From the NCBI GenBank assembly GCA_028289135.1, contig JAQGGW010000003.1:2015-66014 (forward strand): a stretch of DNA of 64,000 bases. Direction: 5' to 3'. This DNA comes from Candidatus Saccharimonadota bacterium (GTDB lineage: Bacteria; Patescibacteriota; Saccharimonadia; Saccharimonadales; JACDBH01). A program made the position numbers and the translations under genes. Below the pieces are notes generated by a model. That model had not been told where the DNA came from. It made no database searches and worked only from the letters and a program-made list of their open reading frames with translations. Shown in pieces: positions 20,652 through 25,537 of the stretch (the stretch's first letter is position 1; each line of letters begins with the position of its first letter).

Positions 20652-20833
20652 AAGACTTTTTACTATTTATTAAATACCCGTACACCGCAGGAGTCATTGG
20701 CATTATTTGGCTTGGCAGCGCCGGTCTACTAGCCATAGATAGCCACCTGCCGCTGGTGCGCGTGGTGATTATAAATATGTTTATGAGCGTTATTATTGCT
20801 GGCTTTGGTTTCCGCGGCAAAAGCGAACTATAG
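20648..20833 (+). CDS. small membrane protein
   Basis: 61 aa with two TM helices. The ATG overlaps the kinase stop (ATGA). Confidence 0.5.
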   Translation: MKDFLLFIKYPYTAGVIGIIWLGSAGLLAIDSHLPLVRVVIINMFMSVIIAGFGFRGKSEL

Positions 20834-20844
20834 ACACTTCTTGG

Positions 20845-20963
20845 GCCGACCTAAGCATATTCCATCTGAATGACACTCTCTACGGGGAGCCTAAGGGCTC
20901 GCCCGTGGCGTTTGGCTGGCCGAAGCGGCCACAGTCACCCAGACGAAATATGCTTAGGTCGGC
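20845..20963. other. 119-nt rod-like hairpin in a convergent intergenic region
   Basis: A perfect 17-bp closing stem GCCGACCTAAGCATATT / AATATGCTTAGGTCGGC. Inner pairings are CTG..TGAC/GTCA..CAG, GAGCC-TAAG-GGCTC and GGCCG-AAG-CGGCC. Confidence 0.6.
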
Positions 20964-21012
20964 GCGAACGTGTTTTTTAAGCCAACGTGACTCGCCTGCA
21001 TCTAAGTTTTAG

Positions 21013-21810
21013 CTAAATAATAATTCGGATTTGTTCGATTGATTTTGCGCGGTTTGTTTCGGGGTTGGTTTCGACTAAAACGGCATTAAACTGCATGGCG
21101 CCTTCTGTTTCCAGCACGTTACGGGTTTGGATCCCGTCGCGCCAGCGGGGAAGTACGCTTTCAAACTTTACTCCCAAGGAACTGTCCAAAGAGCCTACCA
21201 TGCCGACATCGGTTATGTGAGCCGTGCCGCCTTTTAACACCCGCGCATCGGCCGTTGGCACATGCCAATGATCGCCAATAACGGCCGTAACGCGGCCGTC
21301 CAGATAGTGGCCAATTACCACTTTTTCGCTGCTAAAATCACCATGAAAATTAACAATAACAGTGGTAAAGTCGCTTATGCTTAACATGTTAAGTATGCCG
21401 TCAACAGAGGCAAGGGGATTGTCGGTTGGCTTGTCAGCGTCTTTGCCTACAATACTGCCCAGCAGGCTGATGAGCAACACTTTGCCCTGGCTAGTTTCGG
21501 CAATCTTGTAGCGCTTCCCTGCTGTGCCGTCTGGATAGTTTGCCGGTCGTGTTACGGCGTGTTCCTCGCCCTCAAGCAGCTCATGGGTTTCGTCCAAGTG
21601 CATTGTCCAGTTGCCGCCGGTGAAGGCCTGCACCCCTGCCCTTTTGAGCCTTTCGTAATCAGCAACAGTTAGGCCTTTGCCTTCCGAAACATTCTCGGCC
21701 TGGGCAATAACAAAATCTACATCTTTTTCATTAACAAGTCCGGGCAAAACTTTTTCAACTGTTTCGATCCCTGCTTCGCCCATTACGTCGCCAATATATA
21801 AAATTCTCAT
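21013..21810 (-). CDS. ymdB: YmdB-type metallophosphoesterase (2',3'-cyclic-nucleotide phosphodiesterase family)
   Basis: MRILYIGDVMG...VIAQAENVSEGKGLT, GGNWTMH and NFHGD motifs. 265 aa. Confidence 0.85.
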   Translation of the reverse strand: MRILYIGDVMGEAGIETVEKVLPGLVNEKDVDFVIAQAENVSEGKGLTVADYERLKRAGVQAFTGGNWTMHLDETHELLEGEEHAVTRPANYPDGTAGKRYKIAETSQGKVLLISLLGSIVGKDADKPTDNPLASVDGILNMLSISDFTTVIVNFHGDFSSEKVVIGHYLDGRVTAVIGDHWHVPTADARVLKGGTAHITDVGMVGSLDSSLGVKFESVLPRWRDGIQTRNVLETEGAMQFNAVLVETNPETNRAKSIEQIRIII

Positions 21811-22409
21811 GCATTCAACCTATCTTTAAAATATTTTGGCAGCGGTATATCAAACTTCACTTCCGGCAGATCACCAACGGAATCACTGTCTTTCATGCCC
21901 TTATACTGGTCCATATATACTATATCTACACTGCCAAACTTTGCATCAACCCAATCAAGTCCAAGTATTTTTGCAACTGCTTGGATCGATGCTTCATCCG
22001 CGCCTTCGATTTCCATATACGGGTTTAGCCATGGCCACTCATCTAATACAACTTCGACATTATTTATTATCCAAGTTTCCCGTTTTGACTCCTGATAACT
22101 AAAATCAATAAGCCCAATAGCTTTAAAGATTGCGATCATATTGTCATAAGAGCCAACGGTCGTTTCTATTTCGCCCACGTAATTAGTTTTGTTTTTTGCT
22201 TTGAAAGTAACCGTAAATTTGTCGCCCTCATCGCGTACACGTAACCGTTTAGGATGGCCATTATTTTGAAAACGCCCATCGGGAAAATCAAAATGCACCC
22301 GGCGCATTATACGCATTGGATGTTCGCAAATAGCGCCAGCTTCTTTAAGCATGGCTCGCATTGCCTCGTGATTTGTATTTAAAAATTTGGCTTCAATTTC
22401 TTGCTGCAT
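21807..22409 (-). CDS. CYTH-domain (triphosphate tunnel metalloenzyme) protein
   Basis: Begins MQQEIEAKF, which carries the ExExK signature. ATG at 22409 lies 1 nt after the upstream stop, so the track extension to 22502 is rejected. The 3' end overlaps the ymdB start by 4 nt. Confidence 0.75.
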   Translation of the reverse strand: MQQEIEAKFLNTNHEAMRAMLKEAGAICEHPMRIMRRVHFDFPDGRFQNNGHPKRLRVRDEGDKFTVTFKAKNKTNYVGEIETTVGSYDNMIAIFKAIGLIDFSYQESKRETWIINNVEVVLDEWPWLNPYMEIEGADEASIQAVAKILGLDWVDAKFGSVDIVYMDQYKGMKDSDSVGDLPEVKFDIPLPKYFKDRLNA

Positions 22410-22410
22410 A

Positions 22411-22941
22411 TTAAAACTCGTACTTCCAGCCCGGTTGGTGGGTAAAGTGTTTTGAGACGCAGTCAATAAGCGGCTCTTTGTTAATAATATGATCCAGCCC
22501 AAAGTGTGTTGCCCGGTGGCCGATTATCATAACCGTTTTGCCGTCAAAGTTTGCCTTTAAGTAATCTAAAAACGAGGCCATACGTTTCATACATTGGTTA
22601 TAACTCTCGCCACTCGGGAAAGGTTCGCTTAGGCGCTTTGAGCGCTCTGTCTCAACCAATTCTTTATCCTTAAGCGTAAAGTCGCCGTAATCGCATTCGC
22701 GCAGCCTATTGTCTGGATAGACTGGTAAATTATGTTGGCTAGCGGCAGGAATAGCAGTCTTAACGGCTCGCTGCAAATCAGACGTAAAGATTATCTCTAT
22801 GCCTCGGCTCTTGCAGCGCTCGACTATCTCAAGCGCATCTCTGTAACCCTTTTCCGACAGGTCAACATCATTCCAACCGCTCGCCCGTTTAGCTTCATTA
22901 TCGGCGGTCGTGGCATGCGGCTCAAACCAAATAGTTATCAT
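22411..22941 (-). CDS. histidine phosphatase (phosphoglycerate-mutase-like) family protein
   Basis: N-terminal IWFEPHATT (catalytic His context), TSDLQRA and IIGHRATH. 176 aa. Confidence 0.7.
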   Translation of the reverse strand: MITIWFEPHATTADNEAKRASGWNDVDLSEKGYRDALEIVERCKSRGIEIIFTSDLQRAVKTAIPAASQHNLPVYPDNRLRECDYGDFTLKDKELVETERSKRLSEPFPSGESYNQCMKRMASFLDYLKANFDGKTVMIIGHRATHFGLDHIINKEPLIDCVSKHFTHQPGWKYEF

Positions 22942-22952
22942 TAAGCTACTTT

Positions 22953-24467
22953 CTACTTCGCGAATTCGATGGCGCGGGTTTCGCGGATGACGTTTACCTT
23001 GATGGTGCCAGGGTACTGCATAGTACTTTCGATCTTGTTGGCAATGTCACGTGCCAGCTTGATGGCGCTAAGATCATCGATGTCTTGCGGACGGACGAAT
23101 ACTCGCACTTCACGGCCGGCAGAAATTGCGTAGGCCTTTTCGATACCCGGGAAAGCTAAGGCGACGTTTTCTAGATCACGCATGCGTTCGCCAAAGTTTT
23201 CGGCCGAGATGTTGCGGGCACCTGGGCGGGACGCGCTGATTGCGTCAACAACACGGACAATCAAGGCTTCTACTGAAGTTGCTTCAACATCATCGTGGTG
23301 CTGCTCGGCGGCCAAAGCGACTTCTTCTGGAGCGCCGTATTTGCGCAACATTTCACCAGAGATGTGGTGATGCTTGCCTTCCATCTTGTGTGTCAGAGCC
23401 TTGCCAAGGTCATGTACTAATGCGGCGTATTTAGCGGTCTTAACATTCGCGCCAAGCTGCTCGGCAATGACGCCGGCGATGTGAGCCATTTCGGTGGAAT
23501 GCTTAAGCACGTTCTGACCGTAGCTGGTGCGGTATTTTAGCTCGCCAAGCAGCTGCAAAATTTCTTTCGGGATTCCAACCACGCCCACCTCACGGGCAGC
23601 GTCTTCAGCTGCGTGTAAAACTTCTTTTTGGACCTGGACTTGGGCTTTTTCAACAACTTCTTCGATTCGTCCTGGGTGAACACGGCCGTCCTTCAAAAGC
23701 ATTTCAAGTGCGATCCGGGCGGTTTCGCGGCGGATTGGGTCAAAGCTGCTTAAGATAATCATGCCCGGCGTATCGTCTACCATAATGTCGACGCCTGTCG
23801 CACGCTGGAGCGCCTGGATGTTGCGGCCTTCTTTGCCGATAATGCGTCCTTTCATTTCTTCGTCTTCAAGCTTCACGGCCGTTACGGTGCGCTCAGAAGT
23901 TACCTCGCTAGCCATGCGTTCCATAGCTTCGGTGATGATGACAGCAGCTTGGTCTTCGGCAGTTTCTTTGGCTTCGTTTTGAAGCTTGTTAATCAATCCC
24001 AGCAAGTCGCCACGGATGTCGCGCTCGGTCATTTTCATAAGTTTGTCAGCGGCTTCTTCTTTTGTCAGCTTGGCGATCTTTTCTAGCTTGTCTTGCTGTT
24101 TTGTCCGGATGGCACGGATTTCGTCTTTAAGTTCCTCGGCTTCTGCTTCAGCCTTGCGCATATTTTCGGCGCGCTTGTCGAGAGTGTCCAGCTTTTTGTC
24201 GATAGATTCTTCTCGGCCCAGTAAACGGGCTTCAATTTCTTTAACTTCGCGGCGGCGGGTTTGTTCGTCTTTGCGTGCCTGTTCCGAAATTTCGGCTGCT
24301 TCGGCGCGGGCCTTACTTAAGCGTTCTTCGGCTTCTTTTTTGGCCTTTTTTAACTCTTTTTCCGCGGCCTCTTCAACAGAGCCCATCTTCTTTTTTGTAT
24401 AAACTGTACTTCCACCAAAACCAGCACCGAGCCCGACCAATGTTAAAACAATGGTTAATGGCAACAT
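22953..24467 (-). CDS. rny: ribonuclease Y
   Basis: N-terminal TM helix, K/E-rich coiled coil, KH domain (GKEGRNIQALQRATGVD) and HD domain (LVHDLGKAL). Start set at 24467, with GGAGG 6 nt upstream. Confidence 0.95.
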   Translation of the reverse strand: MLPLTIVLTLVGLGAGFGGSTVYTKKKMGSVEEAAEKELKKAKKEAEERLSKARAEAAEISEQARKDEQTRRREVKEIEARLLGREESIDKKLDTLDKRAENMRKAEAEAEELKDEIRAIRTKQQDKLEKIAKLTKEEAADKLMKMTERDIRGDLLGLINKLQNEAKETAEDQAAVIITEAMERMASEVTSERTVTAVKLEDEEMKGRIIGKEGRNIQALQRATGVDIMVDDTPGMIILSSFDPIRRETARIALEMLLKDGRVHPGRIEEVVEKAQVQVQKEVLHAAEDAAREVGVVGIPKEILQLLGELKYRTSYGQNVLKHSTEMAHIAGVIAEQLGANVKTAKYAALVHDLGKALTHKMEGKHHHISGEMLRKYGAPEEVALAAEQHHDDVEATSVEALIVRVVDAISASRPGARNISAENFGERMRDLENVALAFPGIEKAYAISAGREVRVFVRPQDIDDLSAIKLARDIANKIESTMQYPGTIKVNVIRETRAIEFAK

Positions 24468-24662
24468 ATAACACCTCCCTACCGGCCCCAAGGTCCTGAT
24501 ATCAGGCGATCACTATCACTTCTTTAGCCTGAAAAATTTCGTCAGTAACCGATATAAAAAATTACGTTTAAGTTAGGATTTTTCCTTTTGTCTCACACAA
24601 TCCTGTATTAAATATATCACAAAACACATACAAAAATAACTTATTGAAAATATATAAAAGCT

Positions 24663-25055
24663 TTATTTTCTAGGCGTTGTAATGTTTGCATCAGCTCCAT
24701 AAAATGGCAAAACAGGAAGATGATTGTTTTTAGCCATGACTAGCTCCAGCCCATCTTTAACCCAGTGGTCGCCTTGGCTGCCAATGATAGGTATTTTTAA
24801 GCTATAACTTAGCGCGTTGGCAACGCTTATCCCAATCCTGAGGCCGGTAAAGGAACCGGGGCCTTCATAGACGACCACGCCCTCGATGTCCTGCCAGCTT
24901 TTGCCATGCTGTTTAAGCAGCGCTTGGATTTTTTTATGCAAAGTCTCTGCCAGCTGGCGGTGCGCCTCCCATTTTTCGTAGGCAATCTGTTTCTCGTCAC
25001 TGTAAATGCCAATTTCAGACTCTGGCTTGTCGGTACGGATGGTTAAGATAATCAT
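24663..25055 (-). CDS. tsaB: tRNA t6A37 biosynthesis protein TsaB (short, N-terminal-domain-only form)
   Basis: VVYEGPGSFTGLRIGISVANAL. 130 aa versus the usual 230 or so. The ATG overlaps the tsaE stop. Confidence 0.8.
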   Translation of the reverse strand: MIILTIRTDKPESEIGIYSDEKQIAYEKWEAHRQLAETLHKKIQALLKQHGKSWQDIEGVVVYEGPGSFTGLRIGISVANALSYSLKIPIIGSQGDHWVKDGLELVMAKNNHLPVLPFYGADANITTPRK

Positions 25056-25537
25056 GAGATATCCTTAAACAAATAATTAAACTTTTCCGGATAGTTAACA
25101 GTTATGGCTCGCGCATCTTCACTATCTGCTTTGCGCTCAATAGTTACTTCAATATGTTCGATTGGCAAAACGCCACTTACAATGTCGCCCCATTCAACCG
25201 CAATTACGGCCTTGTTGTCATTAATTACTTCACTGAGTTCGCGCGCGAGTATCCCGGCCTCTTGCAGACGATAAAAATCATAGTGATGCAATAACAACCC
25301 GTTTCGGCATGCGTATACGCGCTCAACCATAAAGGTCGGGCTGTTTACGACATCCTTTGACCCCAGGCCTTTAGCTAGGCCTTTTACAAAAGTCGTCTTG
25401 CCCCCGCCAATATCGCTTTTTAGCAAAAATATTTCACCGCCCTTACACTTCTGCCCGAGCCGCTCGGCGGCCGCGAAGGTATCGGCGGAGTTGGAAGAAT
25501 CGGTTTGCCACGTCACGTCGGTATTCATATATGGCAT
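25052..25537 (-). CDS. tsaE: tRNA t6A37 biosynthesis ATPase TsaE
   Basis: P-loop SDIGGGKTTFVKGL followed by VNSPTF. 161 aa. The 5' region overlaps the upstream gene. Confidence 0.85.
   Translation of the reverse strand: MPYMNTDVTWQTDSSNSADTFAAAERLGQKCKGGEIFLLKSDIGGGKTTFVKGLAKGLGSKDVVNSPTFMVERVYACRNGLLLHHYDFYRLQEAGILARELSEVINDNKAVIAVEWGDIVSGVLPIEHIEVTIERKADSEDARAITVNYPEKFNYLFKDIS

Follow-up and report, generated by a model that had tools for sequence, protein, structure and literature searches.

In a 64,000-nt stretch of contig JAQGGW010000003.1 (the window), taken from a soil Candidatus Saccharibacteria metagenome-assembled genome (MAG), the genes for RNase Y (rny) and the metallophosphoesterase YmdB (ymdB) are separated by two further genes, which encode a histidine phosphatase (HP) and a CYTH protein that folds as a triphosphate tunnel metalloenzyme (TTM). 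Comparison with related loci shows that rny and ymdB are an ancestral pair and a conserved frame, and that in Saccharibacteria their junction is a slot whose cargo varies by lineage and consists for the most part of small phosphohydrolases. As the reason for this arrangement we favor, with slightly less than even confidence, that CYTH and HP are nucleotide or polyphosphate housekeeping enzymes whose expression is shared with that of RNA-decay genes in a streamlined genome.

The four genes lie in the order rny-HP-CYTH-ymdB (Table 1), with a gap of 11 nt between rny and HP, a gap of 1 nt between HP and CYTH, and a 4-nt overlap (ATGA) between CYTH and ymdB. Open reading frames (ORFs) and domain matches confirmed these identities and junctions, which had been given in a preliminary description of the window. 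That description regarded the unit as an expansion of the rny-ymdB pair, which is bicistronic in B. subtilis (PMC3328962), and this view was borne out. The rny ATG is located 8 nt downstream of a GGGAGG ribosome-binding site, and no internal promoter or terminator signals above shuffled expectation were found by a sequence scan of the unit. The four genes form a co-directional unit, which is probably co-transcribed. Gaps of 15 nt or less separate 22 of the 52 same-strand neighbor pairs within the window, where the coding density is about 90%; because short gaps are usual in this genome, spacing alone is weak evidence for functional coupling. A role of the four-gene set in anti-phage defense was rejected, as PADLOC yielded no system match: its defense models gave weak generic HD-domain matches to RNase Y and none to HP, CYTH, or YmdB.

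Table 1. Features of the rny-ymdB region, in window coordinates
Feature	Coordinates	Strand	Basis or remark
rny, RNase Y, 504 aa	22953..24467	minus	TIGR03319, PF12072, PF00013, and PF01966 matches
Histidine phosphatase (HP), His_Phos_1, 176 aa	22411..22941	minus	PF00300, E = 8e-32
CYTH / triphosphate tunnel metalloenzyme, 200 aa	21807..22409	minus	PF01928, E = 2.6e-11
ymdB-family metallophosphoesterase, 265 aa	21013..21810	minus	PF13277, E = 1.4e-72
AT-rich intergenic/leader region 5' of rny, 195 nt	24468..24662	minus	likely operon promoter site
tsaB-like gene (130 aa) and tsaE	24663..25537	minus	PF00814, PF02367
Long imperfect hairpin, 30-nt arms around smaller GC-rich stem-loops	20845..20963		inverted repeat search

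We surveyed the rny-ymdB junction by two scans. In the CYTH-anchored scan, the CYTH profile was searched against one genome per GTDB species and returned 80 loci, nearly all from Saccharibacteria; rny was present upstream of CYTH on the same strand in 40 of these, most of which also had ymdB downstream. The independent ymdB-anchored scan of metagenome contigs yielded 59 loci with both rny (detected by tblastn) and ymdB, and in all 59 rny was upstream of ymdB and linked to it. The junction was empty in 18 of the 59 (31%), contained CYTH in 14 (rny-CYTH-ymdB), and held only other genes in 27. The linkage is thus not peculiar to this genome, a possibility that the preliminary description had raised against its own proposal of a dedicated RNA-end module. 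The pair rny-HP recurs as well, as described below.

The number of variable genes per junction in Saccharibacteria ranged from zero to nine or more. Over the 91 loci with both rny and ymdB, the families found at the junction were CYTH (47-48), HAD (11-13), YdeN-type serine hydrolase (8), His_Phos_1 (6), MBL-fold (Lactamase_B_3; 6), NUDIX (4), bestrophin-like (4), and GDSL lipase (2), together with singletons: aldehyde dehydrogenase, TPP enzyme, EamA transporter, aldose epimerase, PIN domain, DUF2690, and unknown proteins. In the ymdB-anchored loci, seven families accounted for 38 of the 57 slot genes and for 12 of the 362 flanking ORFs (Fisher p = 3e-29), an enrichment that ignores kinship and shared ancestry and is not a count of independent events. 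CYTH, HAD, HP, and NUDIX alone made up 30/57 slot genes versus 10/362 flanking ORFs. Several of the family matches scored as flanking sit directly after ymdB, and are thus part of the same array. At about three quarters of the loci with CYTH in the slot, the next gene downstream of CYTH was ymdB.

HP scored 110.9 bits against PF00300 (cutoff, 21.7), and its AlphaFold2 (AF2) model (pLDDT 93) had PhoE, PspA, and a riboflavin-pathway histidine phosphatase as its nearest folds. Where the superfamily has R-H-G, this protein has the motif F-E-P-H-A-T-T, the window sequence reading E-P-H-A at the site. When 1.84 billion cluster representatives were searched with a profile of HP, 132 clusters were retrieved at E <= 1e-30. 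The signature of the subfamily is FEPH(S/A)TTxDNE, typically with a C-terminal QPGW. We counted residues in 106 full-length sequences of this subfamily. The position of the RHG Arg was occupied by T, V, S, A, or P and never by R (106/106), and the nucleophilic His9 was kept in 103/106. The phosphate pocket was also conserved, with R58 in 103/106, the proton donor E82 in 100/106, H142 in 98/106, and a near-invariant R81. Of the hallmarks of branch 1 (PF00300), HP shows the score, the nucleophile, the second Arg, the Glu, and the second His, and lacks the RHG Arg.

Genomic contexts of HP were collected from contigs of orthologues (56-72% identity) and from one ymdB-anchored metagenome locus (L110; 53%). 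HP was found in an rny operon in 11 of 13 informative contexts, with NUDIX, HAD, or CYTH genes among its neighbors there. Six of these contained ymdB: rny-HP-CYTH-ymdB (the window), rny-NUDIX-HP-CYTH-ymdB, rny-x-x-HP-CYTH-ymdB, rny-HP-NUDIX-CYTH-MBL-ymdB, rny-CYTH-HP-ymdB, and rny-HP-ymdB. The others, in which ymdB was missing, were rny-HP-CYTH-x, rny-HP, rny-HP-DUF4352 (twice), and rny-x-HP-HAD-DUF4352. Outside rny operons, HP occurred in secE-nusG-x-HP-x-rplK-rplA and at one unlinked locus. That HP might be nearly unique to this genome, as the CYTH-anchored scan had suggested by returning a slot histidine phosphatase at only one other locus (L034), was rejected once the orthologues had been found by protein search.

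At that locus (L034, 6001-7849), three tandem CYTH paralogues lie between rny and ymdB and are preceded by a canonical RHG histidine phosphatase, which has 23% identity to the window HP and is not its orthologue; the superfamily seems to have been recruited to this slot independently here. At another locus (L130, 904-1437), the nucleophilic His of an HP-like protein in the slot is replaced by Gln (LFEIQGQT), and this protein may be a catalytically dead copy. At a third (L168, 5803-7458), a serine recombinase with Resolvase and Recombinase domains directly follows rny-HP-CYTH-183aa, where ymdB is missing, suggesting a rearrangement at the operon end. The MAG carrying this locus (GCA_040384045.1) has a second rny-HP contig (L167), and either contains two copies or is a mixed bin.

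In more distant members of the subfamily, from elsewhere in Patescibacteria, the HP domain was found as part of larger proteins. In six clusters from Patescibacteria (P0259, P0275, P0277, P0278, P0289, and P0307), it is inserted in-frame into valyl- or isoleucyl-tRNA synthetases (ValRS/IleRS); two such clusters are named 'class I tRNA ligase family protein [Patescibacteria group bacterium]' at NCBI. In P0277, residues 10-439 and 635-1059 align to residues 3-425 and 442-862 of T. thermophilus ValRS, with the phosphatase between them. Seven clusters (P0286, P0296, P0304, P0306, P0316, P0326, and P0338) have the HP domain at the N-terminus of FtsY, the signal recognition particle receptor. Further fusions involve HD (2 clusters), NUDIX (2), GNAT (3), dCTP-deaminase-like, alpha/beta-hydrolase, cupin, DUF2007, and MDMPI_N domains. 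In one IleRS (P0307) and one FtsY (P0304), a serine-hydrolase domain is inserted together with HP.

The CYTH protein, which is 100% identical to NCBI 'JWO47_323', scored 44.1 bits against PF01928 (cutoff, 23.2) and carries ExExK at residues 4-8. In an alignment of 24 CYTH sequences, E4, E6, K8, R57, R59, E133, and E135, which constitute the ExExK, RxR, and ExE motifs, were invariant. A C-terminal extension of about 50 aa was conserved as well, with W153, Y165, Y169, F186, and P191 invariant in the alignment. All top Foldseek matches of the AF2 model (pLDDT 95.7) were CYTH proteins; the best PDB neighbors were uncharacterized archaeal CYTH proteins, S. acidocaldarius SaTTM, thiamine triphosphatases, and class IV cyclases.

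Homologues of this protein are named 'class IV adenylate cyclase' at NCBI and 'adenylate cyclase class 2' at JGI. According to Vogt et al. 2021 (PMC8233210), class IV adenylate cyclases require HFxxxxExExK, have a small residue in place of the first Arg of RxR, and have ExA for ExE; thiamine triphosphatases carry an aromatic W/YxRxR; and TTM triphosphatases keep the two Arg of xRxR and a complete ExE on strand beta-8 but have neither the HF nor the W/Y motif. All three class IV determinants are absent from the window protein: its ExExK begins at residue 4, which leaves no room for the HF motif, and RxR and ExE are both intact. With TIGR00318 (CyaB), it scored 39.4 bits, below the cutoff of 57.95. 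We rejected a class IV adenylate cyclase identity on these grounds, and the label is probably wrong for these homologues, judging from their motifs. Thiamine triphosphatase identity was likewise rejected, as the W/Y position is R55 in the window protein, varies among homologues, and is non-aromatic in 24/24 aligned sequences. Membership of the Cet1-like RNA triphosphatases was also rejected: the protein belongs to PF01928, had no match to PF02940 (mRNA_triPase, Cet1-like) at E <= 0.01, and showed no RNA triphosphatase in its 50 best PDB fold matches. The position of ExExK, the intact RxR and ExE, and the non-aromatic W/Y position together correspond to the motif pattern described for TTM inorganic/nucleoside triphosphatases (PMC8233210), and CYTH is predicted to be a TTM-type triphosphatase.

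In a neighbor-joining tree of 98 CYTH sequences, every copy linked to rny or ymdB fell within one contiguous clade, so the linkage is best explained by a single ancestral insertion followed by inheritance. A second clade, also in Saccharibacteria, has the nucleotide-metabolism context nrdA-nrdB-CYTH-(zwf or Nramp)-pyrG, and the remaining contexts were miscellaneous. Linkage to nrdA-nrdB was observed at L032, L044, L051, L054, L055, L057, L058, L060, L062, L075, and L077; downstream of CYTH in this clade, zwf encodes glucose-6-phosphate dehydrogenase and pyrG encodes CTP synthase.

The two outer genes of the unit encode recognizable members of their families. RNase Y scored 571 bits against TIGR03319 (cutoff, 454), and its RNase_Y_N (PF12072), KH (PF00013), and HD (PF01966) domains are all present in an architecture of N-terminal membrane helix, coiled coil, KH, and HD. 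YmdB scored 244.5 bits against PF13277 (cutoff, 27) and 203 bits against TIGR00282, under the equivalog cutoff of 254, and matched the B. subtilis YmdB structure 4b2o (E = 5e-46). D8, E39, N40, N67, and the histidines of DHWH are conserved in this protein, and metallophosphoesterase motif III, GNH, reads GNW (GGNWTMH), with Trp as residue 68. Trp replaces the His of GNH in 72 of 114 Saccharibacteria YmdB sequences (loci L001-L173), and no compensating His is conserved nearby. RNase Y leaves 3'-OH and 5'-P ends and is therefore not a source of 2',3'-cyclic phosphates for YmdB, which weakens the preliminary idea that YmdB cleans up such phosphates after RNase Y.

Taken together, these observations make shared constitutive expression the most likely tie between RNase Y and the two inserted enzymes. 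For HP, as a PhoE-like phosphatase lacking the RHG Arg, the predicted reaction is removal of a phosphomonoester from a small substrate, whether derived from a nucleotide or not, and the single-domain CYTH is predicted to hydrolyze the terminal phosphate of tripolyphosphate or nucleoside triphosphate (NTP)-like substrates by a two-metal TTM mechanism. Both would be housekeeping enzymes carried on an RNA-decay operon in a small genome with few promoters. The nrdAB/pyrG context of CYTH in the other clade supports such a role, as do the fusions of HP to NUDIX, HD, and dCTP-deaminase domains. Several points weigh against it. The rny-linked CYTH genes form a single clade, so their conservation may reflect inheritance only; the slot also holds cargo with no link to phosphate or nucleotides, which favors pure hitch-hiking; and the presence of HP inside ValRS/IleRS, fused to FtsY, and beside rny even where ymdB is missing hints that HP is linked to RNA or the translation machinery more specifically than housekeeping alone would require.

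It is possible, though somewhat improbable in our estimation, that the cargo is functionally unrelated to RNase Y and that its members are unrelated to each other. The rny-ymdB junction, the nusG-rplK junction, a surface loop of ValRS, and the N-terminus of FtsY would then be permissive, constitutively expressed landing sites in the streamlined genomes of Patescibacteria. Such hitch-hiking would account for the mixed cargo (bestrophin-like, GDSL lipase, aldose epimerase, aldehyde dehydrogenase, TPP enzyme, EamA, and PIN), the varying gene order (HP-CYTH, CYTH-HP, and HP-NUDIX-CYTH-MBL), and the location of HP between nusG and rplK and at an unlinked locus. It is also consistent with the insertion of HP and serine-hydrolase domains into several unrelated essential proteins, the tight spacing baseline genome-wide, and the empty slot in nearly a third of the loci. 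However, it does not predict the bias of slot genes toward CYTH, HAD, HP, and NUDIX or the preferred position of CYTH directly upstream of ymdB, and the fusions of HP to NUDIX, HD, and dCTP-deaminase domains point to a shared nucleotide theme.

The preliminary description had instead suggested a dedicated RNA-end module, which we consider unlikely, and less likely than shared expression. In the form considered here, RNase Y, an enzyme stimulated by 5'-monophosphates, could act once 5'-triphosphates had been trimmed by CYTH, joined by NUDIX in relatives, and YmdB and HP would clear 2',3'-cyclic, 3'-, and 2'-phosphates from RNA or tRNA ends. Some observations favor this proposal: rny-HP adjacency persists even in ymdB-less loci, NUDIX recurs both in the same operon and fused to HP, and the HP domain interrupts, in frame, ValRS/IleRS, which hold the 3' end of tRNA (in P0277, between positions 425 and 442 of T. 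thermophilus ValRS). Enzymes that process RNA ends occur in each of the HAD, metallophosphoesterase, NUDIX, and TTM superfamilies. For YmdB, nucleic acid has been put forward as the physiological target (PMC6123443). The part that relied on the RNA 5'-triphosphatases of the CYTH family is weakened, as the window protein is a PF01928 member and not of the Cet1 type. Its nearest characterized relative, SaTTM, is a PPPi/NTP triphosphatase (PMC8233210). The nearest folds of HP are small-molecule phosphatases, the linkage of CYTH arose once, CYTH is elsewhere or missing from the slot in most loci, and the slot contains unrelated cargo. The products of RNase Y, which carry no cyclic phosphates, also argue against the module. 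The co-insertion of serine-hydrolase domains into the same IleRS and FtsY proteins suggests that these are permissive insertion sites and not a sign of RNA-related function.

A bolder version of this idea, which we regard as doubtful, is that the Arg-less HP is an unrecognized phosphatase of RNA or tRNA ends (2'-/3'-phosphates) that has been repeatedly attached to RNA and translation machinery in Patescibacteria. A modular kit that conditions RNA ends for RNase Y-dependent decay would then comprise HP, CYTH, NUDIX, and YmdB. In it, CYTH would be a candidate for the activity that converts 5'-PPP to 5'-PP RNA in bacteria, to our knowledge still unassigned. The preliminary description had also mentioned turnover of nucleotide signals. 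In its cAMP form, with CYTH as a class IV adenylate cyclase and YmdB as the matching phosphodiesterase, this is extremely improbable: database names of the CYTH homologues and the usual adjacency of CYTH and ymdB speak for it, but the motif and TIGR00318 results described above all but exclude CYTH from the class IV cyclases.

Upstream of the unit, the 195-nt leader is the only sizeable gap within the tsaE-tsaB-rny-HP-CYTH-ymdB array, and a search of it for a consensus sigma-70 promoter gave no match above chance. The order tsaE-tsaB-rny was found at most Saccharibacteria loci examined, making the two tsa genes conserved upstream synteny partners of rny. The 130-aa tsaB-like product (24663-25055) matches the 264-position TsaD/TsaB Pfam model over positions 24-86 only, and this short form is kept across Saccharibacteria loci. 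Downstream, the hairpin lies between the ymdB stop codon and a convergent ABC1 / 61-aa gene pair. The 191-nt stretch 20825-21015 had a predicted folding energy of -92.5 kcal/mol (z = -8.2) on the minus (operon) strand and a z of -6.1 on the plus strand. The hairpin matched no Rfam family, and neither related loci nor the rest of the window contained a further copy; it could serve as a bidirectional terminator or be a structured RNA of unclassified type.

Each of the protein families described here is already known, as is the rny-ymdB pair. Three features appear to be new: the slot with changing phosphohydrolases in the rny operons of Saccharibacteria, the motif-based assignment of the Saccharibacteria CYTH proteins to predicted triphosphatases and not to cyclases, and the phosphatase subfamily that lacks the RHG Arg and is inserted into essential translation proteins. 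No paper in the literature library that was searched deals with these three features, and nothing relevant was found there on CYTH with RNase Y, on Saccharibacteria RNase Y, or on histidine phosphatases in Patescibacteria aminoacyl-tRNA synthetases. In bacteria, the steps that ready 5'-triphosphate RNA for 5'-end-dependent decay are only partly understood. The interleaving of rny and ymdB with recurring phosphohydrolases provides concrete candidate partners, namely CYTH, NUDIX, HAD, and the RHG-less HP. The last of these is a coherent subfamily that breaks the signature motif of its superfamily. For CYTH, the analysis indicates that a widespread annotation is probably wrong. Even if the cargo is only hitch-hiking, the loci document how ultra-small genomes lodge accessory enzymes in essential genes and operons.

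Among known systems, HP most resembles the broad-specificity phosphatase PhoE/YhfR (1ebb and 1h2e) and the phosphoserine phosphatase PspA. Its fold agrees with theirs (TM-score 0.82-0.86), and it retains the nucleophilic His and the second His, the second Arg, and the Glu that donates a proton. It differs from these branch-1 enzymes in the absence of the RHG Arg throughout the subfamily, its short length, its QPGW end, its insertion into ValRS/IleRS, and its fusion to FtsY. The bifunctional RNase H / acid phosphatase (NF005567) offers an earlier example of a ribonuclease paired with a branch-1 histidine phosphatase domain, for which an action on small molecules has reportedly been proposed. 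Against the phosphatase part of NF005567, HP scored 59 bits, far under the model cutoff of 326; in contrast to that protein, the nuclease here is RNase Y, and nuclease and phosphatase are encoded by separate genes.

CYTH is closest in sequence and fold to SaTTM (Saci_0718), PH1012 (2dc4), and Pfu-838710 (1yem), which share the eight-stranded tunnel fold and the ExExK/RxR/ExE motifs, and two-metal triphosphate hydrolysis, as in the bacterial tripolyphosphatases NeuTTM, CthTTM, and YgiF, is the reaction predicted for it (PMC8233210, PMC4641920). It is set apart from the SaTTM, archaeal CYTH, and bacterial TTM group by an identity of only 18-26% and by its own C-terminal extension, and its placement inside an rny operon or after nrdAB is not known to have been described. 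The unit as a whole resembles the rny-ymdB operon of B. subtilis, in which these two genes likewise follow each other in this order on a single strand and RNase Y has the same domain architecture. It differs in the two extra genes between them, in the genes upstream of rny (tsaE and tsaB here; pgsA, cinA, and recA in B. subtilis), and in the YmdB motif, which is GNH in B. subtilis and GNW here.

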